Origin: Candidatus Moraniibacteriota bacterium
Lineage (GTDB): Bacteria > Patescibacteriota > Minisyncoccia > Moranbacterales > UBA2206
Direction: 5' to 3'
DNA: 48,508 nucleotides
NCBI GenBank assembly: GCA_037132035.1
Contig: JBAXPY010000001.1
Location: 1 to 48,508 of the forward strand
Made by a program: the position numbers and the translations under genes. Position 1 is the first letter of the stretch, and the number at the start of each line of letters is the position of its first letter. Of the stretch, positions 1-48,508 are shown piece by piece. The notes under the pieces were generated by a model. That model was not told where the DNA came from, ran no database searches, and saw only the letters and a list, made by a program, of their open reading frames with translations.

Positions 1-1238
1 TGATTTTCCTCAGGCGCATCGGGAGCTTCTTCCATATAGATATGCCCAGTTTTTTTATCGACAAAATCTTTTTTTGGTTCATCGAGTTTTGCAGTCTTTT
101 GGTCTAAAAACTTAATTTCTGGAGGAGCTTTTTTGATTTTAATCTGGGAAATTTTAGTGCGGATTTTTTCCCAGAGTGAAACAGATTGATCTTTTATTGC
201 GCCTGTTGCGCTTTTGAGTAGCTTTGCACTTGATTGCCCCAAGCTAGAGAGTTTTTCTTTGAAAAGGGGGAGCGGGTCGAATTCAATTTTTTCGGCATGA
301 TTTTCCTCAGGCGCATCGGGAGCTTCTTTTATGTAGATATGCCCAGTTTTTTTATCGACAAAATCTTTTGCTTCATCTTTGAGCTCTTGGATTATTTCTT
401 GCCTTTCCTTTTTTATGATGGCGTCCTTAGCTCTTTCTTTTTCTAGCATTTTTGGAGAAGGTTTTTTTTGAAAGGCGGCTTGGCTAAAAACATTCATATC
501 CTCTCTTCTTGCGGCTGTTGGGGCTTCGGGAAGCTCATCGTTTTTTTCGTCTATATCGATAACGAGAGAGGCCACCTGGTCAAGTTCGTTGACGAGGGCG
601 GTGTTTAGGAACTGGATGAAATTTTCACGTGAAAATTTGAGTGCGCTTTTTTTAATTTCTTCTAGGGAAAAAATGTTAAAAATTTTCTTTGTAGTGAGTA
701 GCAGTTTGTTATTTTTTTCGATTTTTCCCGAAATGACATCCTGAAACGTTTTCAAAGGATTAGAATCGATGTTTTCATCTTGAATCTCCGTAATTTCAGC
801 GAAGGTATTGCCGCGCAAAAGAAAAGCTGAGGCATTTCCGGTTTGAGAGAGGAGAATGTTATTCTTTTCGATTACAGCACAAATAGCATTGACATGCCCA
901 ATCCAGCCGATATTTTCATGCGTGGCGAGTTTGGCGAGAGCAAGATTGGCTTTGTGTAGGGCTGATTCGAAGTTTTCAATAGGACCGCGGTTGGCACGGG
1001 AAAAATACTCCTTTTTAATGATGGAAATTAGGTAATTTACGACATAGGAAGAATCTTCGCTTCTGTCGTCAATCTGGAAGATTCCCACCAGAGTCCCAAG
1101 ACTATGATGTGAAATATTTTCCGGTTCTTCAATCAGTATTTCAAGGAATGGTCGACAATCATTTTTTTTGCAAATCAAAATATCATGAAAGTTCGGTTCC
1201 AAGTGGGGCATTCTTTTGTCGATTTTTTTTCTGGTCAT
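1..1238 (-). CDS. Partial CDS (runs off the left edge): degenerate PP2C/SpoIIE-like domain protein with a Lys/Glu-rich repetitive C-terminal region
   Basis: Absent from the ORF track because there is no stop inside the window. The reverse complement from ATG (1238..1236) reads MTRKKIDKRMPHLEPNFHDIL... and stays open for 412 codons to position 1. ILLSQTGNASAFLLRGN resembles the PP2C 'vaNvGDSRayl' strand but lacks the Asp. There is an in-frame 72-nt direct repeat at 1-72 and 298-369. Confidence 0.5.
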   Translation of the reverse strand, partial: MTRKKIDKRMPHLEPNFHDILICKKNDCRPFLEILIEEPENISHHSLGTLVGIFQIDDRSEDSSYVVNYLISIIKKEYFSRANRGPIENFESALHKANLALAKLATHENIGWIGHVNAICAVIEKNNILLSQTGNASAFLLRGNTFAEITEIQDENIDSNPLKTFQDVISGKIEKNNKLLLTTKKIFNIFSLEEIKKSALKFSRENFIQFLNTALVNELDQVASLVIDIDEKNDELPEAPTAARREDMNVFSQAAFQKKPSPKMLEKERAKDAIIKKERQEIIQELKDEAKDFVDKKTGHIYIKEAPDAPEENHAEKIEFDPLPLFKEKLSSLGQSSAKLLKSATGAIKDQSVSLWEKIRTKISQIKIKKAPPEIKFLDQKTAKLDEPKKDFVDKKTGHIYMEEAPDAPEEN

Positions 1239-1487
1239 ATTGAAAACTAACAGGAGGCTTGTCTATTAATATAATTTAGCATAATTTGGCAAAAAATAGA
1301 AATAGCTTGGCAGTCAGAATGAATATTTGGAAGTTTTTGTATTTTATGGTACTATGAAGTCATTGAGATGTTTGCTTGTCGGGGTGGGGCTGATTATGAT
1401 GAGATTTATATGATAGATTAAAAAAAAGATGACCCTGATTTTGTTGTCGGTTAAAAAAGTTATAATTATTTTTTACAAAACAAAAAA

Positions 1488-4400: not shown

Positions 4401-5642
4401 TATAATGGAGTAACTCCAGGCACTACTTGCGAAGCGACCGTTTCTGTCAGGGCTGATGCAATCTGCGGTTCTGCAAGCGGGGGAACTTCCTGCTTGGCGC
4501 CAACTAGCAATCTTTGTACTTTAGGTACATTACTAGCAGCTCCGACGGTATATTCTGGTACATGGTGGGGATGGACATGCTTGGGATTGAACGGTGGTGC
4601 TAATGGAAGTTGTAGCACGACAATAGACTGCGCTAGTCCTTCTTGTGTTGCGAATTTTTCACCAACGAGCTTGACTGCCCCGGGAACTGCCAGTCTTACT
4701 TGGGTTCCTTCTAATGCTGATAAGATGCTTGGTACATGTTCTGGAATTGGTGCAATAATTCCAGAGAGTGATTATGGACTATCTAATACTGTTGGCTATC
4801 CTTTTGCTTTTACTGCTTTGCAAACCGGAACGGAAACTTGCACGTTCACTCCATATATGGGAGCGACAAAAGGCGCCCCTTGTTCTGCTAGCGTAGTAGT
4901 TAGGGATACTTGTGAATGTAGTACAATAGTTAGCACTGGAGTACCTTGTCCGGTAGGAACAACTTGCGATGGTTGTAATTGTATTTCTCCAAACACTTGT
5001 ATGCCATTAGATCCACCTGTGGGCACAACAAGGTGTCCCTTAACCAGAGAAACGGGTCTTAGTTCTGTTCAAGCATGGACGGATCGCATAACCCTTTCTG
5101 CTTGCACCGGAGTGCTTGGAATATGCGAGTACTATACTCCTATTGCAACATTCGGTTGTGACCCGTCCGATCCACCAACAGGAATAAGATGTGCCGGAAC
5201 GAGAGAGTCAGGTTTTAGCGTTTCTCAATCATGGACGCCTGTGGGAACAGTTTCCTCTTGCACTGGATTGAGTGGCATATGTGAATATTATACCCCAGCT
5301 GGAACATTTGGTTGTGACCGGCCCGATCCACCACCAGGACATGCAAGATGCCCTGCAACTCAAGAATCAGGCTTTAGTTCTGTAAAGTCTTGGCTTCTAA
5401 AAGCAAGTCTTAGTGCTTGCACTGGTCCAACCGGAATTTGCGAGTATTATCCTTGTCCGACAGCTCCTCAATGCTATTATCCGACCACCTGCAGTTCTGG
5501 TGGTTGCGGAATCCAATATGAAGCATGTCTTTCTATCCCTGCATCCCTTGGATGCACTGCTCCCGCTTGTCTCTCAACTTCTTGCACGGGAACGATGAAT
5601 TGTCCTTGTAATTCGGGAGGATGGCAGGAGATTTCTCATTAA
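1488..5642 (+). CDS. Giant (1384 aa) secreted/membrane-anchored Cys-rich repeat surface protein
   Basis: ORF track. N-terminal signal peptide MKKKFLTLALFLAFILFNQKAQA. Internal hydrophobic hairpin at aa ~452-492. The C-terminal ~890 aa are Cys/Gly/Ser/Thr-rich with modules ...ETCTFTPY.G...G..C.A.V.VR, CGS..G..C....LC...W.W.C.G..GG....CS, and three 50-52-aa repeats ending GICEYY. Confidence 0.75.
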   Translation: MKKKFLTLALFLAFILFNQKAQATAVSPTTIPPAVTSETVPRQVDVGNQQGEVGKMTVIADINFRDPSIIKQENNKLILYFSLENKFPKSEAGIRYGVQLIKDKTLIDEKVYTDDVLSVESNNFIQKIFSYDAPGYLFGDFELWLVSENESGLPLATFKFEKPLTLMGTGEYLEINNKSCSLKIEGDKDNKIYSLMQGVSLKPEETLRLNCEVISHFKEAVTISPSYSTFERTLFGNLVDRDRKGAELTFQSGEKKTVNLAIEKPKNPQAYEVKVDLVQNSRPVSGQLINAKVKKTDSAQNNISVSSPVIFHYVIAGESATIRKLDLDKISYQKGDIINATLRWSGSADNFGDSRTGNTKDNTVLLSLDISDDANQKCADSLEETLEPNSPEAKLALTAKINCTDPKVKVTLKNGQGVVLAQKEFNYLKNKEISPKQPGATAPTAKHKSSNSVIIIILILVLVVTLILFFLKKRNKTGKLLFLLLLGVLFSCRLQNVRAITIDKPYNSWGDFCYSVNLNKGSGPYDTGEAMSVTYSGSATNTGCFDHDGNTTLLASTNTSDSWSDVSWRGNQNFKDGNCNVSIPSSTWNAGSAPSSSGSISLIACITGEGSLGVRSYCSGTSSGGGNFDSASGSIPYTVRGATPLPTPTCDINFGSGTYTAGSWGTMTWSSTNTTNAYLTCSLGSSVLVNGAEVYSSTSSYATKNYGVSLASAGTVACTLKVVNSAASSESTQSTCSAWAVVSGPIPTPKCVASFSVVNIQAPGTAYLSWYSFDADKTIGSCSGIGSPVPAADYGLAYDNYPIAFVATDSGTETCTFTPYIGATAGTPCSASVLVRSQGVCGSADGTSSCTQPTTGLCGSSSTASAVTGTGPWNWTCTGASGGGSVSCSATKSCALASCHASFSPSSILTSSTTPGVSVLAWDSTGDSMTVSCTGPMPISPAMSVVNPASGSGPVPFTVDQTGIEKCTFTPYNGVTPGTTCEATVSVRADAICGSASGGTSCLAPTSNLCTLGTLLAAPTVYSGTWWGWTCLGLNGGANGSCSTTIDCASPSCVANFSPTSLTAPGTASLTWVPSNADKMLGTCSGIGAIIPESDYGLSNTVGYPFAFTALQTGTETCTFTPYMGATKGAPCSASVVVRDTCECSTIVSTGVPCPVGTTCDGCNCISPNTCMPLDPPVGTTRCPLTRETGLSSVQAWTDRITLSACTGVLGICEYYTPIATFGCDPSDPPTGIRCAGTRESGFSVSQSWTPVGTVSSCTGLSGICEYYTPAGTFGCDRPDPPPGHARCPATQESGFSSVKSWLLKASLSACTGPTGICEYYPCPTAPQCYYPTTCSSGGCGIQYEACLSIPASLGCTAPACLSTSCTGTMNCPCNSGGWQEISH

Positions 5643-18057: not shown

Positions 18058-19209
18058 TCAGTTTCTTTCTAGTATTTTCTGATACAATTTTATCGATTTT
18101 TCCCAGCTAAATTTTTTTACTATTTTGCTTTTCATTTCTCTCCCCATGGAGACCCTTTTTTCTTTATCGGAAATGATATTTGTTATGGTGGCGCTTATTT
18201 TGCGTATATGAGGAATTTCCATAAGAGTGTCTTCTTCTAGATTGATAACTTCATCCGCTCCCTCATTTGGCGTAGCAATGATTGCGCAGCTGCAATACAT
18301 TGCTTCTAGGAGAGATGTGGAAAGTCCGCCACCGTGCAGGGCGGAATGGATGTAGATGTCTGATACCTTCATTATTCCAATTGCTTTTTCTCTTGGCATG
18401 CTTCCAAGCAGGATGGTTGATTCGTCACATAACTCTTGCAGCCTGGAAAAATCTTCTCCATCACCGATGACAATAAAAATTATTTGTTTTTTTATGTTTT
18501 CTGAGAGGTTTTTGATTGCCTCTATGCTATATTCAATCCCTTTCCATTTATAGAGTCTGGCCACGGTCAAGATGATTATTCTGTCTTTAAATCTGTTTTT
18601 AAAATCAATATCGGGAGGGATAGAATCTATCGCTTCCAAATTCAGTCCGCGGTAGATTATCGGAGAATGTCTTTTATCAAATTTATAGACAAACTTCTGG
18701 ACTGCTCTCGAGATAGAAATGTTTATATCTGACGATCGGAAAATGAGTCTACCGATCGTTAGGTCATATATTTTCGCAATAAATGATTTTAGTGGGCTTG
18801 ATAGGATGGTGAAGTTGGAAGTATGCTCAATGTGGATCCATCTAATTCTTTTGATTTTGGCGAACAGCATGGCCAAAAGAGACGTGTTGAAAAATCTAAT
18901 GCGTGAGATGATAAGCTCATAGTCTGTTTTAAATAGGCCAAGATATAGTTTCCAAAACTTAAATTTCCAAAATTTTGGCAGGGGATAGTTGGGAACAATT
19001 TCAAAGGCCGGAAATCTGATGATGTCTAGGTGTTCATTGATTTTTTCATATTCGGCCGAGTCTTTGATGAGTAGGCAGGTAAAAACAGTGATTCTTGTAT
19101 TTTCACTAGCTAGGTGTCTATTGAATTCATCGGCATGACTGCTTAGTCCTCCAATACAAGGGGGGTATATTGCAGTAAAAACAAGTATTTTCATGGTATT
19201 TTTAGTCAA
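18058..19209 (-). CDS. GT4-family (GT-B) glycosyltransferase
   Basis: N-terminal IGGLSSHADE. C-terminal GGLSTSLLEAMYCSCAIIATPNEGADEVI (E-x7-E type). Confidence 0.85.
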   Translation of the reverse strand: MTKNTMKILVFTAIYPPCIGGLSSHADEFNRHLASENTRITVFTCLLIKDSAEYEKINEHLDIIRFPAFEIVPNYPLPKFWKFKFWKLYLGLFKTDYELIISRIRFFNTSLLAMLFAKIKRIRWIHIEHTSNFTILSSPLKSFIAKIYDLTIGRLIFRSSDINISISRAVQKFVYKFDKRHSPIIYRGLNLEAIDSIPPDIDFKNRFKDRIIILTVARLYKWKGIEYSIEAIKNLSENIKKQIIFIVIGDGEDFSRLQELCDESTILLGSMPREKAIGIMKVSDIYIHSALHGGGLSTSLLEAMYCSCAIIATPNEGADEVINLEEDTLMEIPHIRKISATITNIISDKEKRVSMGREMKSKIVKKFSWEKSIKLYQKILERN

Positions 19210-37406: not shown

Positions 37407-37478
37407 AGCGGGATGGAGCAATGGCAGCTCGTCTGGCTCATAACCAGAAGGTTCCAGGTTCGAATCCTGGTCCCGCAA
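37407..37478 (+). tRNA. Initiator tRNA-fMet (CAT)
   Basis: Manual cloverleaf: AGCGGGA TG GAGC AATGGCA GCTC G TCTGG CTCATAA CCAGA AGGTT CCAGG TTCGAAT CCTGG TCCCGCA A. It aligns closely with E. coli tRNA-fMet. It has a 1:72 mismatch (A.A) and A11:U24. No CCA is encoded. Confidence 0.85.
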
Positions 37479-37558
37479 CAAATAGTATTTAGTATCCAGT
37501 ATGATGTTCTGGTATTATTTTTTTCCGATACTAAATACAAAATACCAGATACTGATTC

Positions 37559-37632
<74 letters not shown>

Positions 37633-37650
37633 CAAAGGAAAATTTAAATT

Positions 37651-37724
37651 GGGGGCGTAGCTCAGTTGGTTAGAGCGACTGCCTGTCACGCAGTAGGTCA
37701 CCGGTTCGAGTCCGGCCGTCCCCG
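37651..37724 (+). tRNA. tRNA-Asp (GTC)
   Basis: GGGGGCG TA GCTC AGTTGGTTA GAGC G ACTGC CTGTCAC GCAGT AGGTC ACCGG TTCGAGT CCGGC CGTCCCC G. Discriminator G as expected for Asp. Confidence 0.88.
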
Positions 37725-37837
37725 CATCTTAAGTCATCCCGCCAAGGCGGGACCGTCCCCGCATCTTAAGTCATCCCGCCAAGGCGGGACCGTCCCCGCA
37801 TCATAAGTCATCCCGCCGCGGCGGGACCGTCCCCGCA
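37717..37837 (+). repeat. 37-nt tandem repeat x3.3 that starts inside tRNA-Asp and reiterates its 3' acceptor strand
   Basis: Units at 37717-37753, 37754-37790 and 37791-37827, plus a partial unit at 37828-37837. Each unit is CGTCCCCGCA + TCTTAAGTCA + hairpin TCCCGC-CAAG-GCGGGA + C. The third unit has 3 substitutions. Confidence 0.9.
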
Positions 37838-37844
37838 GAAAAAA

Positions 37845-37867
37845 ACGAAGCATTTCGCTTCGTTTTT
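37845..37867 (+). terminator. Rho-independent (bidirectional-looking) terminator closing the tRNA cluster
   Basis: ACGAAGC / GCTTCGT stem with a 5-nt loop, an A-run before and a T-run after. Confidence 0.6.
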
Positions 37868-37890
37868 ATGTTGTTAAAAATTTCAAAAAA

Positions 37891-37919
37891 TTGACAAAAA
37901 ACATCTAAAATGATACAAT
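37891..37919 (+). promoter_or_regulatory. Promoter TTGACA-17-TACAAT (with TG extension) upstream of the RhuM-like gene
   Basis: -35 at 37891-37896 and -10 at 37914-37919. Confidence 0.55.
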
Positions 37920-37947
37920 ATCACCATGATGAGCTGTAATAAAAAAT

Positions 37948-39009
37948 ATGAAAAAAAGAAAGCAAAAAATTGTTCCAAATAATAGTTTCACGGAGTTTTT
38001 GTTTTACACCACTCCGAATGGAAAGGTGAAGGTCGAAATTTTTTTGCGTGATGAAACTGTGTGGCTGACTCAAGAGAAAATTGCTTTTTTATTCGGTGTT
38101 CAGAGGCCAGCCATCACTAAACACCTTAAAAATATCTTCGAAAGTGGAGAATTAGATGAAAAAGTGGTTAGTTCCATTTTGGAACATACCACGGAGCATG
38201 GAGCTCTGGAGGGGAAAACACAAACTCAGCTGGTAAAATTTTATAACCTCGATGCGATCCTCTCAATTGGTTACAGGGTAAATAGCTCACAGGCTACACA
38301 ATTCCGAATTTGGGCAACAGAGCGACTAAAAGAATATATCATCAAGGGATTTACGATGGATGATGAAAGACTAAAAACCCCCAACTACACCTTTGGTCAA
38401 GATTATTTTGAAGAGCAGTTGGCGCGTATAGCGGACATTCGCAGTAGCGAACGTAGATTTTACCAAAAAATCACCGATATTTATGCCCAGTGCAGTGCGG
38501 ATTATGACAAGAGTAGTGTTGAAGCTCAGCATTTTTTTGCTACCGTGCAAAATAAATTACACTTCGCAATTTCAGGCTACACGGCTGCGGAAATTATTAG
38601 CAGTCGTGTGAGTAGTGCTAAGCCAAGTGTTGGTCTCACTAACTGGAAAAACAGCCCACAAGGTGCTATACGAAAATCAGATGTAGTAGTGGCTAAAAAT
38701 TATCTAAATAAAGAAGAGCTCGCAGGTCTCAATAATATTGTGGAACAATATTTAATCTTTGCTGAGTCACAAGCGAACCGTAAGCAGGCCATGTTTATGC
38801 TGGATTGGAAAAAAAAGTTAAGTGAATTTTTAAAACTTAATGATCGTGACATCTTGGGAGATTTGGGCAAAGTCAGCCATGTTGTGGCTGAAGCTCTGGC
38901 GCTGGAAGAATACAAGAAATACCGAATAGATCAAGACAAAAATTACATTTCTGATTTTGATCGAGAGGTGAAGAGGATGCTGGAGAGTAGGAAGAAAATT
39001 AAGAAATAA
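37948..39009 (+). CDS. RhuM-family (virulence protein RhuM-like) protein
   Basis: TTPNGKVKVEIFLRDETVWLTQEKIAFLFGVQRPAITKHLKNIF...YNLDAILSIGYRVNSSQATQFRIWAT is the characteristic RhuM N-terminal region as I recall it. Confidence 0.75.
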   Translation: MKKRKQKIVPNNSFTEFLFYTTPNGKVKVEIFLRDETVWLTQEKIAFLFGVQRPAITKHLKNIFESGELDEKVVSSILEHTTEHGALEGKTQTQLVKFYNLDAILSIGYRVNSSQATQFRIWATERLKEYIIKGFTMDDERLKTPNYTFGQDYFEEQLARIADIRSSERRFYQKITDIYAQCSADYDKSSVEAQHFFATVQNKLHFAISGYTAAEIISSRVSSAKPSVGLTNWKNSPQGAIRKSDVVVAKNYLNKEELAGLNNIVEQYLIFAESQANRKQAMFMLDWKKKLSEFLKLNDRDILGDLGKVSHVVAEALALEEYKKYRIDQDKNYISDFDREVKRMLESRKKIKK

Positions 39010-39111
39010 ATGATTCAAGCTAATGACTCGAAAATTGATTTTCTGTATATATGCTATTAGTATATAGGTAGAACAATTCGCACAAAAGAATATGCCATTT
39101 TTATCGAAAGG

Positions 39112-39285
39112 ATGAAAAAGGCTAGGCTGGAATCAGGGCTTAGGCAGATTGACGTCGCAAAGAAGATGAAACGACCGCAGTCTTATGTTTCCCGTGTTGA
39201 ATCGGGGGAATATAGGCTCGATATTTTGGAAGTGAAAAAGTTTACAGGGCTTTATAAAAAGAGTATTGATTATTTTTTGAAATAA
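39112..39285 (+). CDS. Small XRE-family HTH protein (57 aa, below the ORF-track cutoff)
   Basis: MKKARLESGLRQIDVAKKMKRPQSYVSRVESGEYRLDILEVKKF matches the HTH_3 pattern (..Q.ela..l...qs.vs..E.G.r..d). The frame is open upstream to 39061 without a start codon. Confidence 0.55.
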   Translation: MKKARLESGLRQIDVAKKMKRPQSYVSRVESGEYRLDILEVKKFTGLYKKSIDYFLK

Positions 39286-39578: not shown

Positions 39579-39606
39579 AGAAAAGGGAACCGAAGTTCCC
39601 TTTTTT
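39579..39606. terminator. Bidirectional terminator hairpin downstream of the minus-strand rSAM gene
   Basis: AAGGGAAC CGAA GTTCCCTT flanked by an A-run and a T-run. Confidence 0.6.
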
Positions 39607-39623: not shown

Positions 39624-40949
39624 CTATGTCATATAGGGTCTTGCAAATCGTTCTTCGTGATAAAGACGTTTCACGAAAATTCGATAGCAGAGATTGCCGA
39701 AAAAATTGATGAGCGAAGGGGTCTCCGATTGAAGAATTGTTCGTTTAGCAATATGAGTGAGTTGAAAAGTTTTTTCATATGCCCACTTGAAGCCTCTGTA
39801 TAATTCTTCAGGTGACATCTTGGCCGGTTGGAACACCACATGCATAGTGTCGTAGTTTTCCCAATTGAGAGTAAGAATACGATTTTCTTCTGACAATCGT
39901 TTGAACAAACGCGTGCCTGGATAGGGGGTATAAATCGAATAACGAGGAATGTCAATCTTTAAATCGAGTACGCGCTGAACTGTAGTTTCGAAAATGGATG
40001 AATCATCTTCGTCAAACCCAAAGACGAAACAGCCTTGGAGGGAAATGCCATATTCATGTAGAGTTTTGACAACTTCTCTGTACTCATTTTCCTTGTTAAA
40101 GCCCTTGGAAATGCTACAAAGAGTTTTTTGATTGGCCGATTCCATTCCTAAAAGCAAATAGATGCAGCCGCTTTTTTTCATCAGCTCAAGCAGCTCTAGG
40201 TCACGGGAAACCATTGTAGTGGCTAGTCCACCCCAACGTTTTTTAAGCGGAATCATCGCGGTAAATAGTTCTTTGGCGTATTCCCTGTCATCTACAAGAC
40301 TTACATCATTAAAAGCAATATATTTTCCAGGAAGACTTTGAATGTGGCTAATAACATCGGACACGGGGCGTTTGTAGAATCCTGGCCAGACTGATGGCAC
40401 GGTGCAAAAATCACATTGATGTTTGCAGCCCCGCGTAGCCTGAACTGTGTCGGGTATCATATAGCCCGATCTTCTTTGGAGATCAATTCTTGGTGACGGA
40501 ACTCCTTTTAATGTGAAATCATCCGGCAAGCGATCATCGCGGTAGACCTTTTTCATTTTATTTAGAGAAAAGTCTTTTAAGAGTTGAGGCCAGGTTTTCT
40601 CAGCCATGCCAATCACAATCGTATCAGCATATTGAGCAGCTTCGCCTGGAAGAATAGTGACATGCACTCCACCTAAAACGACAGGAATACTACGTCTTCG
40701 AAAATACTTTGCATACTCGTAGGCCCTACAAGCAGTTCCTGTTATGACGCTAATTGCGACAAGATCTGCTGGGTAGTCAAGCGGAACCTTGTCTATGCTT
40801 TCGTCGATCAATTTGAAATGGAATTGGTCGGAAGGAGCAAGCGCTGCCAATGTTGTTAGTGTTAAAGGAGCTTCACGAAATGAACGTGTAAAAGAACCAA
40901 TTCTTAGTTTGTGCATATGCGCATCCGGCATTATCATCAATATTTTCAT
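39624..40949 (-). CDS. Cobalamin-binding (class B) radical SAM enzyme with DUF4070-like C-terminus, paralog 1
   Basis: N-terminal Rossmann-like B12-binding region (DLVAISVITGTACRAYEYAKYFRRRSIPVVLGGVH), CxxxCxxC (RGCKHQCDFC), GMES, and a C-terminal extension. SD AAGGGAG. Confidence 0.8.
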   Translation of the reverse strand: MKILMIMPDAHMHKLRIGSFTRSFREAPLTLTTLAALAPSDQFHFKLIDESIDKVPLDYPADLVAISVITGTACRAYEYAKYFRRRSIPVVLGGVHVTILPGEAAQYADTIVIGMAEKTWPQLLKDFSLNKMKKVYRDDRLPDDFTLKGVPSPRIDLQRRSGYMIPDTVQATRGCKHQCDFCTVPSVWPGFYKRPVSDVISHIQSLPGKYIAFNDVSLVDDREYAKELFTAMIPLKKRWGGLATTMVSRDLELLELMKKSGCIYLLLGMESANQKTLCSISKGFNKENEYREVVKTLHEYGISLQGCFVFGFDEDDSSIFETTVQRVLDLKIDIPRYSIYTPYPGTRLFKRLSEENRILTLNWENYDTMHVVFQPAKMSPEELYRGFKWAYEKTFQLTHIAKRTILQSETPSLINFFGNLCYRIFVKRLYHEERFARPYMT

Positions 40950-41171
40950 CCGATTCTCCCTTGTTTATGGTGAAAAATTGTTTAAATTTATACTATCAAG
41001 CTAAGTAGGATCATTCTATCAATAATAATCGCCAGACGTCAAGGAAAAGGCTGTAATTGACAGCAGAAGGCGGGCATAGTAAGTTTATTATTACAGTACT
41101 TTGACAATTTTCGCAGGTAAATGGTAATTACAGAAATTCAGATAATCATATTAAAGAAAGGAATTGAAGCG

Positions 41172-42494
41172 ATGGATATCACTCTTATATTTCCTGCTGT
41201 TGGACGCAAAAAGGGATCTTCGTACATTAAATCATGGCAAATGGAACCACTATCAATTGCGATATTGGCTGGACTGACACCAAAACATATCAATCTTCAT
41301 TTTTTTGATGATCGCATCGAGTCGATACCTTATGATCGTCCGACAGATGCCGTAGCGCTTAGTGTTGAAACATATTCTGCTAAGCGTGCTTATGAGATTG
41401 CCAAAGAATATCGCCAAAGGGGCGTCTTGGTCATCATGGGTGGTTATCACCCAACATTGGTTCCTGGAGAAGTTTCGCAGTATGCAGACGCAGTTGTTAT
41501 TGGCGAGGCGGAGGATTGTTGGCTGAAGGTACTTGATGATTTGCAAAAGAAAAAGTTGCAGAAAGAATACCGGAGCAGTGGCAATTTTTCATTGGATAAA
41601 GCTACTCCTGATAGGAGTATTTTTAAGGGAAAACATTACTTCGACCTTACGTTAGTTGAGACTGGGCGCGGTTGTCACTTTCAGTGCAACTTTTGTTCTG
41701 TCACCGCGTTTCATCGGGCAACATATCGGAGAAGACCAGTCGGTGAAATTGTTTCTGAAATCAAGCAGACAGGCAAAAAGCGCATCTTTTTTGTGGATGA
41801 TAATATTATATCCGATTTTGATTCGGCTCAAGAATTATTTGAGGCTCTGATCCCTCTTGAGATAAGTTGGATCAGTCAATGTAGTATAGATGTGACCAAA
41901 AATGAGCAACTGTTGTCCTTGATGAAACAGAGTGGTTGCAGCGGTCTATTGGTCGGATTTGAATCGATCCATAAGGAAAACTTGACGCAAATGGGTAAAT
42001 TCCATAACGCGCAGAACATCGACTATGCTCGGGTTATTAGTAAATTTCGAGAAAAGGGCATCGTCATTTATGGAACATTTGTTTTCGGCTACGATCATGA
42101 TAATGAGGAAACTTTTCGGAAAAGTGTTCTTTTGGCAAAAAAAAGCAAGCTTTTCATTGTTGCTTTTAATCATTTGGTGCCTTTCCCGGGAACTCCGCTT
42201 TATAAAAGACTTGAAGCTGAAGGTAATCTGTTATACCAGAAGTGGTGGCTTAGTCCGGAATATTTCTTTGGCGATGTCGCTTTTAAGCCAGCACAACTTT
42301 CCGCGGTTCAATTGAGTGATTTGTGTATTTCCAGTCGGCGTGATTTCTATGGCATGTTGTCTATCTTGAGTCGAGGTTTTGATTTTAAAGCTAATTGCTT
42401 GAATTTATCAAGAGCAATTGCTTTTCTTTTGACAAACCTGATGCTTCGCAAAGAAATTGATCAAAGAAAAGGCTTGCCGCTCGGTAACGGATAA
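41172..42494 (+). CDS. Cobalamin-binding (class B) radical SAM enzyme, paralog 2
   Basis: DAVALSVETYSAKRAYEIAKEYRQRGVLVIMGGYH and GRGCHFQCNFC. Start taken at ATG 41172 (MDITLIFP, aligns with the paralog 1 N-terminus); the ORF track lists 41121. Confidence 0.8.
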   Translation: MDITLIFPAVGRKKGSSYIKSWQMEPLSIAILAGLTPKHINLHFFDDRIESIPYDRPTDAVALSVETYSAKRAYEIAKEYRQRGVLVIMGGYHPTLVPGEVSQYADAVVIGEAEDCWLKVLDDLQKKKLQKEYRSSGNFSLDKATPDRSIFKGKHYFDLTLVETGRGCHFQCNFCSVTAFHRATYRRRPVGEIVSEIKQTGKKRIFFVDDNIISDFDSAQELFEALIPLEISWISQCSIDVTKNEQLLSLMKQSGCSGLLVGFESIHKENLTQMGKFHNAQNIDYARVISKFREKGIVIYGTFVFGYDHDNEETFRKSVLLAKKSKLFIVAFNHLVPFPGTPLYKRLEAEGNLLYQKWWLSPEYFFGDVAFKPAQLSAVQLSDLCISSRRDFYGMLSILSRGFDFKANCLNLSRAIAFLLTNLMLRKEIDQRKGLPLGNG

Positions 42495-42504
42495 GGAGAG
42501 ATAT

Positions 42505-43617
42505 ATGGATAAATTTATACTCGGATTAGCAGATCAATCAGATGACGAGATGCTTCAAGAGGTAATTCGCAGTAATTCTATGGAGGGAAAAATTCAGTTA
42601 TCGTTTGGTCGCAGTCCCAGTTTTTTCCAAAGCGTGGGTCTTCTGGGGGATGAAAGTCAAATTATTGTAGCCAGAAATGCAGAAAACAAAGCTATTGTCG
42701 GATTTGGCATACGTTCGATCCGGCGAGTATTTTTAAATGGTCATGAGGAAACAATTGGTTATCTCAGTGGTCTAAGGGTAGCACAAGAATATCGGAATCG
42801 CACCCTTTTGGCACGAGGCTATAAATTTTTGAAGCAGCTTCATGAGGATGGAAGAGCCTCGGTATATCTGGCTAGTATCATGGAGGACAATAGTACGGCT
42901 ATCGATTTGCTTACCAGTAGAAAAGCGTGTATTCCAATTAGCCAAGATTTGGGGAGATATTGTACTTTTGTCTATCGAGCAAATAAAAAACCAATCAGCT
43001 TGACCAATGCAGGATTAGAAGTTAGGCGAGGAAAAGCGGATTATATCGGTGATATGTTGAAATTTTTAAACAAACATAATTCAAAGAGACAGTTTGCTCC
43101 TTGCTACAAAGAACAAGATTTTTTCGACCAGAAGCTTTTTCTTGGACTAGCGCTGGAAGATATTTATCTTGCGTTTCGAGGTAAAAGAATAGTGGGGATG
43201 CTTGCCAAATGGGATCAACATGCTTTCAAGCAGATAAAAATTGATGGCTATGATATTAAATTGAAATATCTTAGACCGTTAGTAAATCTGGTTGCTAAAG
43301 CAAAGGGACTGCCGTATCTTCCGATAGCAGGAAATGAGCTTGATTTTTTTTATGTTAGCCTAATTTGTATTTCTTCAGATGAACTGGGGGCTTTTTCCGT
43401 AATTCTCAATAAACTCCAGCAGGATAATATGGATAGAGATTATTCGCTATTCATGTTGGGAATGCACAGCGGGGATTCGCTTATTGATGAGGCAAAAAAA
43501 TTCCCTCATCTACAATATAATAGTCGTGTGCATATGATGTACTGGGAAGATCAGCGAGCGAAAGCAGAAAAAATAGATCGAGACATGGTTCCTTATCTTG
43601 AATTAGCAACTTTATGA
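42505..43617 (+). CDS. Two-lobed GNAT/FemAB-like acyltransferase-fold protein (tentative)
   Basis: SD AAGGAG before ATG 42505; the ORF track start 42457 is a non-ATG extension. IVGFGIRS...GYLSGLRVAQEYRNRTLLARGY resembles a GNAT beta4-alpha3 CoA-binding region. The second half has a similar pattern. Confidence 0.35.
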   Translation: MDKFILGLADQSDDEMLQEVIRSNSMEGKIQLSFGRSPSFFQSVGLLGDESQIIVARNAENKAIVGFGIRSIRRVFLNGHEETIGYLSGLRVAQEYRNRTLLARGYKFLKQLHEDGRASVYLASIMEDNSTAIDLLTSRKACIPISQDLGRYCTFVYRANKKPISLTNAGLEVRRGKADYIGDMLKFLNKHNSKRQFAPCYKEQDFFDQKLFLGLALEDIYLAFRGKRIVGMLAKWDQHAFKQIKIDGYDIKLKYLRPLVNLVAKAKGLPYLPIAGNELDFFYVSLICISSDELGAFSVILNKLQQDNMDRDYSLFMLGMHSGDSLIDEAKKFPHLQYNSRVHMMYWEDQRAKAEKIDRDMVPYLELATL

Positions 43618-43635
43618 AATAGGGGAGGATTCAGT

Positions 43636-44385
43636 ATGGGAAAATTGTTTGGTCGTACAATTAGTCAAAAAACACTTTCAAGAGTCGAAGTATCCGCAAT
43701 GCATAGTCTCATGACGCGTTACTATGATAACGTTGATGAGGCTATATTCCAGAAAGACTTGATGGAAAAAGATCAAGTGATTTTACTGGAGGATAATCAG
43801 ACCGGTCAGCTAAAGGGATTTTCTACTTTCATGTCTTTTGATGTGTCAGTGGATTGCCAATCAGTCAGGGCTATATTTTCTGGCGATACAATTGTTGAAC
43901 GGGAATATTGGGGGGACTTTGGATTATTGCGAAGTTTCTGTCGGTATTTAAATCATGTGGCCAATACGTCAAATATACCGGCCTACTGGTTTTTGATTTG
44001 CAAAGGGTACAAGACCTATCGGTATCTGCCACTCAATTTCAATCAGTTTTATCCCCGATATGACATGGCTACCCCACAGTATGAACAGTCAATTCTAGAT
44101 GCTCTTGCCTTTCATAAATATCCTTCCGAGTATGATGCTCAGAAGGGTATAATAGGCTTTTCCTCTCCGTCAGAATGTTTGAAGGAAGGAGTAGCAGAAA
44201 TTACGGACGCAAGATTATCAAATCCGCATGTCAAGTTTTTCTTAGAACGGAACCCTAACCATCAATCAGGTGATGAACTGGTTTGTGTGGCCAGGTTGAG
44301 TCATGGAAATTTCACCAAAGCTTTTTATCGTTCTGCTCTGCATAAGGAGGATCGGCATGAAAAGAATTGTCCTGATACTGGCTAA
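43636..44385 (+). CDS. GNAT-like acyltransferase-fold protein (tentative)
   Basis: SD GGGGAGGA. ...LKGFSTFMSF...AIFSGDTIVEREYWGDFGLLRSF is GNAT-like. No confident family call. Confidence 0.3.
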   Translation: MGKLFGRTISQKTLSRVEVSAMHSLMTRYYDNVDEAIFQKDLMEKDQVILLEDNQTGQLKGFSTFMSFDVSVDCQSVRAIFSGDTIVEREYWGDFGLLRSFCRYLNHVANTSNIPAYWFLICKGYKTYRYLPLNFNQFYPRYDMATPQYEQSILDALAFHKYPSEYDAQKGIIGFSSPSECLKEGVAEITDARLSNPHVKFFLERNPNHQSGDELVCVARLSHGNFTKAFYRSALHKEDRHEKNCPDTG

Positions 44386-46036
44386 TCTGATCTGGATTTT
44401 GGTGAACATCAAAGATGCATTGCTTTTCAGGTATTCTGCCGACTGCGTGAAAGAAACGCAGAAAAAAATTCTCCAGGAAATTATTGGAGCTAATCGGCAA
44501 ACGGAATATGGCCGGAGATATGATTTTTCAGCTTTGCAATCGGTCGATGACTATAGAAAAAAAGTGCCAATAAGTTCTTATGCTGATTATAAGGAATATA
44601 TTCAGCGCATCTTGTTAGGCGAACAAAATGTATTGACCAAGGAATTGGTCAGTGTTTTGGAACCGACTAGTGGTTCTACTGATGGAACAAAGCATATTCC
44701 TTACACTAAGTCTTTGCAAAAAGGATTCGGTAAGGCAATTGCGCCTTGGGTAGTTGATCTATTCTTTTCACATCCTCGAATGATTCTGGGGAGCAGCTAT
44801 TGGTCAATAACGCCATCAGTAAAAAAAGAATGTCCTGAGGATGCAAATGTTGCTATCGGTTTTAAGGATGATAGTGAATATTTTGGACGGGTAGAAAAGT
44901 GGATGATAGAAATTCTTATGGCAGTCCCGAAAGAAATCAGCCAGATAAATAACATGGAAAATTTCTGGTATGCCACAGCGCTGTTCCTTCTCAGAGATCA
45001 GCGCCTATCTTTCATCTCAATCTGGAATCCAACTTTTCTGCTTCTTCTGATCGATAGGATTAGTCTTCGTTGGGAAGATCTGTTGAAAGACGTGGAGATG
45101 GGAAAGATTTCTTTTCCCGAGGAGGAGGATGGTTTGGCAGTATGCAGTATGCAGAAGCGATTAAGACCTAGCTTGGTCAGAGCAACTCATTTGCGGAAGT
45201 GTCAAAATGATGATAATAGTTTGCAGTGGGATAAGATTTGGCCCAACTTGAGAGTGATAAGCTGCTGGGGATCGGAACGTTCATTACCGTATCTACAGAA
45301 GCTTGAGAGAAAATTTTCTCAAGTCGTAGTTCAAGCTAAAGGGCTTATTGCTACTGAAGGATTTATAACTTTTCCACTTGAGGGGATTGGCTTTGCACTT
45401 TCTGTCCGTTCTCACTTCTTTGAATTCGAAGAAATAGCTGGTAATGGTGAGAAGAATGAGTTAAGGCTTGCGCATGAGCTTGAAGAAGGAAAAGAGTATT
45501 CAGTCATAATTACGACAGGGGGAGGGCTTTATCGTTATCGCTTGGGAGATGTGGTTAGCGTGGACGGTTGGTATGAACAATGTCCATTACTAGAATTCCG
45601 AGGAAGAGGTCAATTCGTCTCAGATTTATTTGGAGAGAAGCTGAACGAACGCTTTGTTCAAAAGATTCTTGACAAAGAGTTGGATATTTTGAATATTTGG
45701 CCGGATTTTTCCATGATAGCACCGGAAATAAATGAAGACACTCAATCCGCTGCCTATACTTTGTTTTTAGAGGTTTCTTCTCGGCGTTGCTTGGAATCTT
45801 TAAGAGTATTGAAATTAACTCTGGAAGAAGGGCTATGTGATAATTTTCATTATGCTTATTGTCGAAAGCTTGGGCAACTCTCATCCTTTCGACTATTTCT
45901 AATTGATTCTTCTGCTAGCAAGGCATATATGAACGGTTGTATTTCGCTAGGACAGAAACTTGGCAATATCAAACCTCAGCTGCTTCGCAAGGAAGTAGGG
46001 TGGTCTAGCCGATTTATCGGAAATTATCTCGATTAA
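44357..46036 (+). CDS. GH3-family adenylate-forming acyl-acid amido synthetase
   Basis: Three GH3/ANL-like motifs: EPTSGSTDGTKHIPY (P-loop), GLIATEGF, and TTGGGLYRYRLGDVV. SD AAGGAGG before ATG 44357, with a 29-nt overlap on the upstream gene. The ORF track lists 44303. Confidence 0.8.
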   Translation: MKRIVLILANLIWILVNIKDALLFRYSADCVKETQKKILQEIIGANRQTEYGRRYDFSALQSVDDYRKKVPISSYADYKEYIQRILLGEQNVLTKELVSVLEPTSGSTDGTKHIPYTKSLQKGFGKAIAPWVVDLFFSHPRMILGSSYWSITPSVKKECPEDANVAIGFKDDSEYFGRVEKWMIEILMAVPKEISQINNMENFWYATALFLLRDQRLSFISIWNPTFLLLLIDRISLRWEDLLKDVEMGKISFPEEEDGLAVCSMQKRLRPSLVRATHLRKCQNDDNSLQWDKIWPNLRVISCWGSERSLPYLQKLERKFSQVVVQAKGLIATEGFITFPLEGIGFALSVRSHFFEFEEIAGNGEKNELRLAHELEEGKEYSVIITTGGGLYRYRLGDVVSVDGWYEQCPLLEFRGRGQFVSDLFGEKLNERFVQKILDKELDILNIWPDFSMIAPEINEDTQSAAYTLFLEVSSRRCLESLRVLKLTLEEGLCDNFHYAYCRKLGQLSSFRLFLIDSSASKAYMNGCISLGQKLGNIKPQLLRKEVGWSSRFIGNYLD

Positions 46037-46074
46037 AAAAAAGGCCTTTTGTGCAAAGCACAGAGGCCTTTTCT
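46037..46074. terminator. Strong bidirectional terminator between convergent operons
   Basis: AAAAGGCCT-TGTGC AAA GCACA-AGGCCTTTT forms a near-continuous ~15-bp stem flanked by A- and T-runs. Confidence 0.7.
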
Positions 46075-46148
46075 ATTAGATTTTTAAATGATGTATCAAG
46101 AAATATTATAAATATGAGAAAGACTATTGAACATATCTGCCTTGCTTT

Positions 46149-47258
46149 TTAGAATTGAATATTTTCCCCTTCCTTAATTCTTTCCAATAAGCATGACGGC
46201 ACCAATTTACCGTCATATAGAATTGCATCAGGACATGGATCGCAAAGATCCCACCCCTCGGAAGTTTGATCGGGGCCATAATTAACAGTAATTATTTGAT
46301 AATTCATCCTGTTGGAAAATTTATTATCAATACTCTCTTTGGTATAATTTTTTAATATTTTTCTTGCATTTAGATTAAAGATACCAAAAAATAACGTGTA
46401 TGGATTTATTGTATTTTTATTAGTTAAAAACCAATGTTTTCCTTTAATAAGTCTAGCTAGCTTTGAAGAAATAGCATACAAGGAACTGTCAATATATCCG
46501 ATTGCCCTACCATCTGAAAAAACTGGAACAAAAATTAGCCAAGATGGGATTTTTTTATTTATTTTCTTTCCAAAATAAGCAGCAGGGCTGCAATTATATC
46601 TTGCAGAAAGAAAAACAATTAACTTTTCCAGATTTTCAGTGTTTGGATTGGCTTGCACTTGTTCACTTCGAATATCCTTGGTGAAAATAAAACTAACAAG
46701 TCTGATAACATCAGAATTGGCAATATAAAACGAAGCTAATCTTTCCAAATTATCCTCCTCAACCCCCCTAATCATAACCATGAATCCCAAATTGACCTCG
46801 GGAAATTCTCTGAATAACTCACAGAATCTTTTTCTGATCGCATATTGCTCATTTTCATCACCCCTGCCTTGATATTTATCGAGATGGATAAGTACTTCGT
46901 TAGTGCCAGCATTTCTTAATTTTATGAGTAATTCGCTATCTAATAGAATCCCATTAGTACATATCCTAACTTTAATATTAATTTTTCTACAATATTTGAC
47001 CAGTTTAATTATGTGTGGGTACAAAAGTGGATCTCCGCCTGCCAATGTAACTGTTTCAATATTGCGTATTTTTTTTAATTCATCTATTTCCTTTCTAACT
47101 ATATCCAAGTCAATGTTTATTGGACGAGAACCTTCTTTTCCGACCTCTCTGTAGCATTTTGGGCAATTTAACTGGCAAAAAGTTGTTGGCTCAACCATTG
47201 CATTTGCATTATCAAAAGTATTCCATCTTACTCGATATAATTTATCTACATTTAACAT
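46149..47258 (-). CDS. Radical SAM enzyme (MoaA/PqqE/HpnH-like core) with Cys-containing C-terminal tail
   Basis: FCQLNCPKCY (CxxxCxxC), LAGGDPLL, and C-terminal WDLCDPCPDAILYDGKLVPSCLLE. Confidence 0.75.
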   Translation of the reverse strand: MLNVDKLYRVRWNTFDNANAMVEPTTFCQLNCPKCYREVGKEGSRPINIDLDIVRKEIDELKKIRNIETVTLAGGDPLLYPHIIKLVKYCRKINIKVRICTNGILLDSELLIKLRNAGTNEVLIHLDKYQGRGDENEQYAIRKRFCELFREFPEVNLGFMVMIRGVEEDNLERLASFYIANSDVIRLVSFIFTKDIRSEQVQANPNTENLEKLIVFLSARYNCSPAAYFGKKINKKIPSWLIFVPVFSDGRAIGYIDSSLYAISSKLARLIKGKHWFLTNKNTINPYTLFFGIFNLNARKILKNYTKESIDNKFSNRMNYQIITVNYGPDQTSEGWDLCDPCPDAILYDGKLVPSCLLERIKEGENIQF

Positions 47259-47334
47259 AATTCGATTACAATAGACCCGTCGCCTTTTAAGCAGTGAGGT
47301 TAAAATTTAGTTGTATTATTAATCAGTTGGTCTA

Positions 47335-47718
47335 TTATTTATTTTTGGAGTTGACGATGCTAAAAGCTTTATCAATTGCTTCTGTTGCCCAGCCGTTTTC
47401 CTTCAAGTTGCTCCTTATGATCTCGTTACTCATGCCAGCGTTGCGAGCATCTGTTATATAATTTACGACAGCCTGATCAGCGGAATTTAATTCAGAGGTC
47501 ATTTCTATACTTGATTGTCTTCCTGTGATAGAATAAAAAATTTTTTCTATCCCAAGGCCGATAAGATATGCAATAGGAATATATGCAATGAGGGTAATTC
47601 CTAGCGTGCATATTATAGTCGTCACAAGGGCTTGAATTGCTTCTGCTCCTCCAAGGATGAAGAGTAATATTAAGGCTGTTATTAAGCCAAAGAAAAAACG
47701 TTGAAGCTTGAGAAGCAT
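47335..47718 (-). CDS. Small two-TM membrane protein with a soluble C-terminal domain
   Basis: ORF track. The start abuts the upstream stop (TAA-ATG contiguous). Confidence 0.55.
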   Translation of the reverse strand: MLLKLQRFFFGLITALILLFILGGAEAIQALVTTIICTLGITLIAYIPIAYLIGLGIEKIFYSITGRQSSIEMTSELNSADQAVVNYITDARNAGMSNEIIRSNLKENGWATEAIDKAFSIVNSKNK

Positions 47719-48483
47719 TTATTTTTTTGTTAGCTTATTATAGTAATATGTCCAATAATACATAAAGCTCATAATTAAAATTAAATAGAACATAATGGCA
47801 AAAGCGGCTTCAACGGGGATGTTTAATCCGGGAATATATAATTCAGAAAAGTTTTCTACTGTCGATGGGGGATATTCCCTGATTTTAGCGGCGACTAATA
47901 TGGCCTCAATCGGCAGTGTGATTATTGTTGCCAAAAGCACATAGCTGAAAAATTTTAACGCAGCATTAATATATGGAAATATTTTATCAATCACCAGGAT
48001 TGATGACCAAATAATGACAATCCAGCCACCTGTCATTAAAAGGCTTATATCCCTGTAGATGTAGGACCAGCTAGGAAGGCTAGTATTTATAAGCATGGGA
48101 TCAACCATTATTTCAAAAAGTAAAATTGCAACAAGCGAGATGCCTAATTTTCTTGGCCAGTGCATATTGTTAAATGGTGCCATTACTTTATGATCAAGAA
48201 AGGTGGACCAGAATTTGTAGAAGCTGATCACTAAGGCCATAAAGACCGGGATATAATAAAACGCAGCAAGCGGAATATTCAGCCCTGGTAAATATAGGCC
48301 ACTGATTATATCTTTGACTTCAGGGGAATAGGTTCTGATTCCCAAGTTAACGACGGCTGTCTCTCCGAGCAAACCAAAAATCGTAACGAAAGTTAGGGTA
48401 AGAATAAATTTTCTTATTTCAGTGTAGTCATCATAGTATTTTTCCACAAGAAACATAGCGAAAAAAACAATGGCTGAACTCAA
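47719..48483 (-). CDS. Polytopic membrane protein with internal duplication, lycopene-cyclase-domain-like (tentative); the 5' end may lie beyond the window
   Basis: Two repeats: GIRTYSPEVKDIISGLYLPGLNIPLAAFYY and KIREYPPSTVENFSELYIPGLNIPVEAAFAI (pattern ..Y.P....G...P.E..f). The listed start is TTG, and the frame stays open to 48508. Confidence 0.5.
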   Translation of the reverse strand: MSSAIVFFAMFLVEKYYDDYTEIRKFILTLTFVTIFGLLGETAVVNLGIRTYSPEVKDIISGLYLPGLNIPLAAFYYIPVFMALVISFYKFWSTFLDHKVMAPFNNMHWPRKLGISLVAILLFEIMVDPMLINTSLPSWSYIYRDISLLMTGGWIVIIWSSILVIDKIFPYINAALKFFSYVLLATIITLPIEAILVAAKIREYPPSTVENFSELYIPGLNIPVEAAFAIMFYLILIMSFMYYWTYYYNKLTKK

Positions 48484-48508
48484 GCAGGATACCCGTCTTG
48501 TTCGGTTG

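Follow-up and report, generated by a model that had tools for sequence, protein, structure and literature searches.

A widespread cassette of GH3 ligase, GNAT-fold and radical SAM genes in a Candidatus Moraniibacteriota genome, with a possible role in acyl-amide lipid synthesis

The stretch of DNA analysed here (the window) is the entire 48,508-bp contig of a metagenome-assembled genome (MAG) of Candidatus Moraniibacteriota, which belongs to the Parcubacteria of the Candidate Phyla Radiation (CPR). Eight genes, here called A to H, lie at 39.6-48.5 kb (Table 1), and five of these, A to E, are a copy of a widespread gene cassette for which we found no describing curated family or paper. The cassette encodes two cobalamin-type (B12-binding, class B) radical S-adenosylmethionine (rSAM) enzymes (A and B), two proteins with predicted GNAT folds (C and D) and a GH3-family amide ligase (E). 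We propose that A–E builds a lipid-like acyl-amide for the membrane or for export, and that a separate CPR module including F, G and H acts on the same or a related lipid. We give this reading a probability of roughly 50%. An initial annotation, made from the sequence alone, had described a three-unit cluster between two hairpins. All eight open reading frames (ORFs) that it placed here are present and the genes are real, but the cluster is a composite of the cross-phylum cassette A–E and the CPR module, and the window truncates it.

An alignment of the D family was scanned against one genome per GTDB species. Homologues were found in at least 591 species-representative genomes from over a dozen phyla. 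Among the matches listed are Acidobacteriota, Planctomycetota, Chloroflexota, Bacillota, Myxococcota, Desulfuromonadota (Geobacter/Pelobacter), Nitrospirae, Gammaproteobacteria, Elusimicrobia, Riflebacteria, Sericytochromatia, CPR and one Woesearchaeota MAG. A set of 85 unrelated cassette loci was examined. D is present in 84 of these, C in 80 and a GH3 gene in 78, and loci lacking one of the three mostly lie at contig ends. Since C, D and E are co-located in 73 of the 85 unrelated loci, their grouping is more than chance. B12-type rSAM genes accompany the three in 58 of these 73 loci. Over all 85 loci the number of B12-type rSAM copies is 0 in 22, 1 in 10, 2 in 29, 3 in 9, 4 in 6 and 5 in 9. 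This variation from none to five suggests that the rSAMs are tailoring enzymes and that the core is formed by C, D and E. The order rSAM-rSAM-C-D-GH3 is found in Brevibacillus, a Clostridiales MAG, a deltaproteobacterial MAG and an unclassified metagenome contig from ENA (L005), with 41-47% identity in the GH3 protein. Co-location in other genomes, on which the initial annotation had made its grouping depend, is clear for A–E and only weak for F, G and H.

The genes had been said to match no nameable pathway, and this still holds. No NCBIfam equivalog was reached by any of the eight proteins (HpnJ, HpnR, HpnH, BchE, OlsH and Tes all stay far under their cut-offs), and C, D, G and H had no NCBIfam match at all. 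A PADLOC scan returned weak generic rSAM matches only, namely PDC-M51A (E = 1e-9) and, on the F core, pVip; C, D, E, G and H matched nothing. A literature search for GH3 combined with radical SAM, GNAT or oxygenases found only the papers on OlsH, and none on the cassette.

Some individual copies of the cassette have settings of their own. A mobilizable IncFIB/IncFII plasmid of Citrobacter portucalensis (NZ_CP134684.1, L148, 51417-60726) carries D, GH3, rSAM, rSAM, C, rSAM, rSAM and a PAP2 phosphatase. This cassette is unique in PLSDB, and none was found in 5,426 complete E. coli genomes. The Prokaryotic Genome Annotation Pipeline (PGAP) names its genes 'hypothetical', 'GH3 auxin-responsive promoter family', 'radical SAM' and 'N-acetyltransferase'. 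In two Acinetobacter baumannii records efflux genes resembling EmrA, EmrB and TolC are interspersed with D, GH3 and C. The locus of A. baumannii X4-300 (NZ_CP064203.1, L146:6153-15586), assigned by eye, has a TolC-like protein among D, GH3 and C, EmrA/EmrB-like genes before them and SurE-like phosphatase and lipoprotein genes after them; it has no rSAMs. The Candidatus Woesearchaeota MAG (DPANN; L015, CAZKBE010000001.1) has A, B, B, C and D together with rSAMs of the SPASM type and the small protein with four transmembrane (TM) segments that is described below, and no GH3 gene within 10 kb. This is either a cross-domain transfer or a binning error.

The assignment of E as a GH3-type amide ligase was confirmed. 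All three GH3 domains are recognised by Pfam, with scores of 176 bits for PF03321 (GH3 N; E = 1e-51), 72 bits for PF23571 (GH3_M; E = 4e-20) and 36.5 bits for PF23572 (GH3_C; E = 9e-9) at a cut-off of 23.6 bits, and an alignment with AtGH3.12 shows that three nucleotide-binding motifs (TSGSTDG, ATEG and YRYRLGD) are kept. The start at 44357 is backed by the orthologues P0002 and P0003. A hydrophobic helix, 'ANxLWxL', is conserved at the GH3 N-terminus and might be a membrane anchor, but only 14 of 117 orthologues pass the threshold for TM-like hydrophobicity. The nearest solved relatives are plant GH3.12 (88 bits, E ~5e-24), JAR1 and the indole-3-acetic acid (IAA)-amido synthetases. E resembles GH3.12/PBS3, JAR1 and the IAA-amido synthetases in its three-domain architecture and nucleotide motifs, whereas the sequences are distant and E stands in a bacterial operon with GNATs and rSAMs.

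OlsH of Singulisphaera acidiphila is the sole characterised bacterial GH3 enzyme; it is GH3-like, uses fatty acids and forms N-acyl-ornithine from a free fatty acid and ATP (PMC12493201). On the OlsH equivalog (NF052613) E scores 76.9 bits against a cut-off of 620, only an N-terminal stretch being aligned, and this rules out E as an OlsH orthologue. The pathway of OlsH and OlsI is nevertheless the closest precedent to the one we propose. Like it, the proposed pathway would start with a GH3 enzyme making an N-acyl amide from a free acid, dependent on ATP and without coenzyme A (CoA) or acyl carrier protein (ACP), and would continue with a second acylation step; both have lipid-modifying enzymes nearby. 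They differ in that the partners of the GH3 enzyme are two GNAT-fold proteins, not the alpha/beta-hydrolase OlsI, and in that the cassette has zero to five B12-type rSAMs or O2-dependent oxygenases and frequent exporters. No OlsI-type alpha/beta-hydrolase is found among the genes of the window, and an Abhydrolase neighbour occurs in just 3 Caldilineae-type loci.

C and D had been called GNAT-like; mainly on predicted structure, the call stands for C and is probable for D. The AlphaFold models were made from orthologue alignments. The model of C has a confidence (pLDDT) of 93.6 and two GNAT domains, and Foldseek places it with the tandem GNAT MAB_4324 (7q3a) and with N-myristoyltransferases (NMT) at E ~1e-13 and TM-scores of 0.58-0.64. 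The Pfam score of C is borderline (20.2 against a cut-off of 20.7 bits), and 19 of 35 C orthologues match Acetyltransf_1 (best E = 9e-8). C is thus predicted to be a member of the GNAT superfamily. The model of D (pLDDT 93.8) has a GNAT core and a C-terminal extension of ~110 residues. Foldseek aligns it with AAC(2')-Ia and NatD over ~135 of its 249 residues (E = 3e-6, query TM-score 0.42), and with hhalign the D core aligns to the N-terminal GNAT domain of C (E = 3.8e-5). D has no Pfam, NCBIfam or PDB sequence match, and profiles of C and D against PDB sequences gave nothing useful.

C is like the tandem-GNAT acyltransferases (NMT, MAB_4324 and the Eis/MshD type) in its two fused GNAT domains, and like NMT-type enzymes in keeping a CoA-binding-like motif in the N-terminal half only. 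It differs from them in sequence (identity only 10-14%, TM-score ~0.6), in having no evidence for a protein substrate, and in always being paired with a separate GNAT-core protein, D, whose C-terminal extension is unique. Enzymes such as OlsB, OlsF, GlsB and the N-acyl amino acid synthases have GNAT-like folds and N-acylate amino acids, which gives lipoamino acids. These enzymes draw on acyl-ACP or acyl-CoA and require no GH3 ligase. Their likeness to the cassette is one of proposed product class, and Pfam and NCBIfam scans gave no sequence match of C or D to N-acyltransferases of this type. The fold of D also exists outside the cassette, as Azospirillum brasilense Sp7 (p1, L149) and 7 other Azospirillum replicons have a divergent D homologue (~29% identity) with no detectable GH3, C or rSAM gene within 9 kb. 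A 744-aa 'C fusion' in Sandaracinus was rejected as an artefact of ORF extension in high-GC DNA.

A and B are two paralogous, divergently transcribed cobalamin-type rSAMs, as the initial annotation had it. Both have an N-terminal B12-binding domain followed by a Radical_SAM core with a CxxxCxxC motif, which defines class B, above the cut-offs. The Pfam scores are 34.0 (B12-binding), 49.2 (Radical_SAM) and 22.1 bits (DUF4070) for A, and 36.6 (B12-binding) and 55.9 bits (Radical_SAM) for B. The motif reads CKHQCDFC in A (within RGCKHQCDFC) and CHFQCNFC in B, and the two proteins are 36% identical (E = 5e-82). The start of B at 41172 agrees with its orthologues, and the one in the 81-86%-identical relative L086 has the same length of 440 aa. 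Orthologues of A are present in at least 47 loci with 44-68% identity, and copies of the B type number 1-4 per locus elsewhere. The weak best matches of the two are BchE, HpnJ and a ladderane-associated lipid rSAM family, and all class B equivalog models stay 4-10 times under their cut-offs: the best NCBIfam match of A is BchE with 109 bits against 481, HpnJ gives 88 and 86 bits against 578, and HpnR 50 bits against 650. The nearest solved structure is 9ccb, taken to be an MgmA-type enzyme solely because the MgmA paper cites that entry. A and B thus share the N-terminal B12-binding domain and rSAM core with HpnP, HpnR, HpnJ, BchE, GrsA/B and MgmA, but they are far below the equivalog cut-offs, and their reaction may be a methylation, a cyclisation or another.

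For the neighbours of the cassette, all ORFs of the 85 loci were clustered and the recurrent families annotated. Rieske oxygenases recur in 22 loci, FA_desaturase in 20, FG-GAP/ASPIC proteins in 12, SnoaL-like proteins in 10, P450 in 8, FA_hydroxylase in 7 and MATE exporters in 6. B12-type rSAMs as the only tailoring set occur in 49 loci, O2-dependent oxygenases only in 13 (mostly Acidobacteriaceae), and both in 14. We infer that rSAMs and oxygenases are alternative tailoring sets which go with anoxic and oxic lifestyles, respectively. In the deltaproteobacterial MAG a CDP-alcohol phosphatidyltransferase, a PlsC-type acyltransferase and CdsA lie directly downstream of GH3, and in the ENA contig L005 the GH3 gene is followed by a gene like phospholipase D (PLD)/cardiolipin synthase and then by an RND pump. 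Export genes near cassettes are of the MATE, RND/MFP/OEP and MacB-like ABC types, besides the EmrAB-TolC-like genes of A. baumannii. The desaturases, hydroxylases, phospholipid enzymes and exporters beside the cassette, together with the precedent of OlsH, favour a lipid-like acyl-amide as product. It is these neighbourhoods elsewhere that keep alive the general idea of the initial annotation, an acylated, amide-linked and rSAM-tailored lipid-like product; two cues on which it had leaned, a lycopene-cyclase-like and an HpnH-like protein, fell away, as described for H and F below.

Two smaller neighbour families were noted as well. A small protein with four TM segments (~140 aa, faint DUF4345 match with E = 0.014) lies in or beside the cassette in 15 of the 85 loci, for example at L006:9169-9570, L027:5146-5574, L040:3204-3668, L062:15759-16169 and 18522-18992, and L087:3024-3449. 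L087 is a 62%-identical relative, and the window itself lacks this protein. A pentapeptide-repeat protein, which may be a self-protection factor, lies between cassette rSAM genes at L016:2988-3407 and in 3 other Caldilineae-type loci.

With the motifs of A, B, E and F kept and a tandem-GNAT fold in C, these enzymes look functional. From the observed gene content, folds, motifs, co-location and neighbourhoods we infer the following substrates, order of steps and product. E would use ATP to adenylate a hydrophobic carboxylic acid (a free fatty acid being the most likely) and would couple it to an amine or amino acid, which as with OlsH would give an N-acyl amide without CoA or ACP. C, with its NMT-like architecture, would then add a second acyl group, taken from an acyl-thioester, perhaps jointly with D. 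A and B would modify unactivated carbons by O2-independent methylation or other C–H functionalisation; in aerobes Rieske, desaturase, P450 and hydroxylase enzymes appear in this tailoring role. The resulting lipid-like amphiphile would either enter the membrane or be exported.

The number of rSAMs raises the question of a peptide or protein substrate. The rSAMs would then modify a peptide or protein, as in a pathway for a RiPP (a peptide that is synthesized ribosomally and modified after translation), while a GNAT acylates an N-terminus or lysine and GH3 ligates a further group. Multiple B12-type rSAMs, of which cassettes have up to five, and SPASM rSAMs are a typical sight in RiPP clusters, RiPP maturases are among the weak NCBIfam matches, and the fold of C resembles protein N-myristoyltransferase. 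Lipidation of RiPPs by GNATs is known, which also fits such a role. On the other hand, a conserved precursor peptide, of which the initial annotation had seen no sign, was not found: among small ORFs of 18-110 aa within 1.5 kb of the 85 cassettes there was no conserved family, the clusters found being shadow ORFs or low complexity, though a highly divergent precursor could have gone unseen. Furthermore, C, D and E persist in 22 of the 85 loci that lack a B12-type rSAM, the neighbour families that recur in several loci and were annotated include no peptidase and no RRE-type or leader-binding gene, and membrane desaturases and hydroxylases are ill-suited to a peptide substrate. We therefore regard a RiPP or protein-modifying role as very improbable.

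The second module concerns F, G and H, on the opposite strand. F has a Radical_SAM domain of 77.6 bits and Fer4_12, and keeps CxxxCxxC. The initial annotation had seen an HpnH-like tail (DUF3463) in F; this was not found, as F has neither a SPASM nor a DUF3463 match and its match to the HpnH model (31.6 bits against a cut-off of 225) is confined to the rSAM core. The reading frame of H is open to base 48508, so that ~90 N-terminal residues are missing in the window. Its internal duplication is real (repeat E = 8e-13), but the likeness of the repeats to lycopene cyclase is not sustained: H has no Pfam match, PF18916 (cut-off 27 bits) does not appear at E values as high as 10, and faint Lycopene_cyc scores (14.5-15.7 bits, E = 0.02-0.05) come from just 2 of 10 full-length homologues. 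The H family is rare, with 78 representatives among 1.84 billion proteins, and its full-length homologues have ~345 aa.

A 4.6-kb metagenome contig (L111, Ga0194044_10008729, 1-4604) is 100% identical to the window over H, G and F, and carries the full-length H of 345 aa. Upstream it has two further co-directional genes for SPASM rSAMs, rSAM4 (176-1153, 325 aa) and rSAM5 (1161-2306, 381 aa). The unit is therefore rSAM4-rSAM5-H-G-F, and the cluster of this organism has five rSAMs, not three as first counted. A metagenome scan with an alignment of 8 H sequences gave 58 H-family loci. In these rSAM5-H-G is a conserved triple, and a G homologue follows H in 42 of the 58. The SPASM rSAM, H and G thus form a separate CPR-type module, usually without the cassette, and the two are joined in few genomes. 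Of the 58 loci from the scan only L109 also has the cassette, and there rSAM4-rSAM5-H-G-A-B-C-D-E are contiguous on one strand with gaps of ~15-165 bp; a copy of F (70% identical) lies upstream on the opposite strand and MraZ downstream. In L086 the gene right behind GH3 is G (56% identity), and F is missing there. Weak F-like non-B12 rSAMs flank the cassette in 6 of the 85 loci.

The surroundings of the triple were recorded separately. In L088 (6739-15998) its neighbours are a weakly matched (27.5 bits) UbiA-like prenyltransferase, a protein with a PEP-utilizer domain, a CDP-alcohol phosphatidyltransferase, a small GNAT, a 212-aa protein, a CarS-like protein of the CDP-archaeol-synthase family and an NAD_binding_4 reductase. 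Neighbourhoods of this type are also found in L099, L101, L104, L107, L110, L115, L121, L123 and L141. This looks like an undescribed lipid gene cluster on CPR-type metagenome contigs; neither the window nor any of the 85 cassette loci contains counterparts of its lipid genes. As the SPASM module lies beside prenyl and CDP-alcohol lipid genes elsewhere, the CPR module (two SPASM rSAMs, H, G and F) probably acts here on a membrane lipid, the same as or related to that of the cassette.

A serious rival reading, though the less likely one, is that two or three unrelated systems happen to lie side by side here, A–E on one side and the CPR membrane module with a substrate of its own on the other. 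H or G was found in none of the 85 cassette loci, which come from other phyla, and the cassette is missing from 56 of the 58 loci with the rSAM5-H-G triple, so that the link of the two modules rests on three related genomes. In addition, the units in the window are convergent with a strong bidirectional terminator between them, and F-G-H have a lower GC content (0.34-0.37 against 0.39-0.41). Against this, the genes of both modules are contiguous and co-directional in L109, the adjacency recurs in the window, L111 and L086 despite rearrangement, and each module is independently found in lipid-type surroundings elsewhere. A functional link of the two modules is plausible.

Several observations weigh against a lipid-like acyl-amide made by A–E and a CPR module acting on it, and the counts just given for H and G are among them. 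No member of the cassette has a known product or activity. GH3 enzymes also conjugate aromatic and other non-lipid acids, and the sequence of E, which reaches only 77 bits with the OlsH model and 88 bits with plant GH3.12, gives no substrate assignment. Rieske, P450 and SnoaL proteins are equally typical of aromatic and polyketide chemistry, and the lipid-phosphate genes occur in few loci, where lineage synteny is possible. There is no fatty-acid, ACP or CoA gene in the window, and the scheme presupposes that a CPR cell can supply cobalamin and acyl-CoA. A secreted secondary metabolite would account for the pumps and the patchy distribution no less well than a membrane lipid.

Much of this would also suit a water-soluble, non-lipid conjugate, i.e. 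a hormone-, siderophore- or antibiotic-like amide. It would arise when GH3 joins an aromatic, amino or keto acid with an amino acid or polyamine, and would be N-acetylated by the GNATs and decorated by rSAMs or oxygenases ahead of its export. The closest solved relatives of E are of this kind, GH3.12 being a benzoate/isochorismate-glutamate ligase. The tailoring of aromatics, alkaloids and polyketides commonly involves Rieske enzymes of the KshA/NdmA/DdmC/SxtT type, P450 and SnoaL-like proteins; efflux pumps and the pentapeptide-repeat protein adjoin some cassettes, and a spread that resembles horizontal gene transfer and includes a plasmid copy fits secondary metabolism. We nevertheless hold such a conjugate to be unlikely, because membrane-bound FA_desaturase/FA_hydroxylase, CDP-OH transferase, PlsC, CdsA, PLD, PAP2 and small polytopic proteins recur beside the cassette, because the closest folds of C include long-chain acyl-CoA transferases, and because the one bacterial GH3 enzyme that has been characterised takes fatty acids (PMC12493201). 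The lipid-like acyl-amide is thus the product we prefer.

Table 1. Genes and sequence features at 39.6-48.5 kb of the window
Feature	Position	Strand	Description
A	39624-40949	minus	class B (B12-binding) rSAM of 441 aa; in the cassette's 'A-type' orthogroup
B	41172-42494	plus	class B radical SAM enzyme, 440 aa, paralogue of A; ORF open from 41121
C	42505-43617	plus	tandem-GNAT acyltransferase-like protein, 370 aa; core gene
D	43636-44385	plus	GNAT-core protein with C-terminal extension, 249 aa; core gene
E	44357-46036	plus	GH3-family ATP-dependent acyl-acid amido synthetase, 559 aa; ORF open from 44303
F	46149-47258	minus	non-B12 radical SAM enzyme, 369 aa; variable accessory gene
G	47335-47718	minus	small membrane protein with soluble C-terminal tail, 127 aa; partner of H
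H	47719-48508	minus	internally duplicated polytopic membrane protein, cut by contig end; full length 345 aa
Hairpin	39581-39604	minus	intrinsic-terminator-like, downstream of A
Hairpin	46039-46072	both strands	bidirectional terminator between convergent E and F
Intergenic region	40950-41171		between divergent A and B; presumed promoters

Protein C matches the NCBI locus tag WCO05_00220 at 100% identity. Two hairpins had been put forward as terminators bounding the cluster, and both fold far better than shuffled controls. The first has a 10-bp stem and a T-rich tail (dG -13.4 kcal/mol, z = -4.6), and 0 of 200 shuffles equalled it. The second forms on either strand (dG -19.6 and -19.5 kcal/mol, z = -4.4 and -5.2) and has an A-run at one end and a T-run at the other, which makes it a bidirectional terminator inside the cluster and not one of its boundaries. 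The promoters are presumed to lie between A and B. For A, the best-scoring sigma-70-like candidate has an extended TG and lies at 41042-41013; promoter-like sites are not enriched over shuffles.

Upstream of the cluster three tRNA genes (tRNA-Met, tRNA-Met and tRNA-Asp) lie at 37407-37725. Next, just upstream of the cluster, come a RhuM-like gene (PADLOC candidate PDC-S05, E = 1e-136) and a gene for a 57-aa helix-turn-helix protein, and the whole region of 37407-39285 looks like an island-type junction. The position of the cassette differs among related genomes, as it adjoins MraZ in L109.

We file the cassette under GH3-initiated acyl-amide or aminolipid biosynthesis as the known kind of pathway. 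Hundreds of species, among them gut Ruminococcaceae, soil Acidobacteria, Planctomycetes, A. baumannii and the host of an enterobacterial plasmid, have the D-GH3-C core as an orphan pathway. Of the three core proteins, two lack an established family: D matches none and C is borderline to generic GNAT models. As OlsH alone of the bacterial GH3 enzymes has a known function, defining the product of the cassette would widen bacterial GH3 chemistry. The cassette could also offer a natural example of a swap between rSAMs and oxygenases in tailoring, and cultivable hosts exist for testing.

CPR bacteria are generally thought to lack normal lipid synthesis. How they build or remodel their membranes is an open question, and the cassette is a testable candidate that is independent of CoA and ACP. 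In its widest form, which we offer as a speculation with little chance of being right in full, the GH3 route from free fatty acid, ATP and amine would enable a CPR bacterium auxotrophic for lipids to convert host-scavenged fatty acids into amino-lipids of its own, tailored anaerobically by five rSAMs. The SPASM rSAM, H and G would mark an undescribed membrane-lipid pathway, and C, D and E would define a new, widespread class of acyl-amide lipids with interchangeable tailoring sets, rSAMs under anoxic and oxygenases under oxic conditions.

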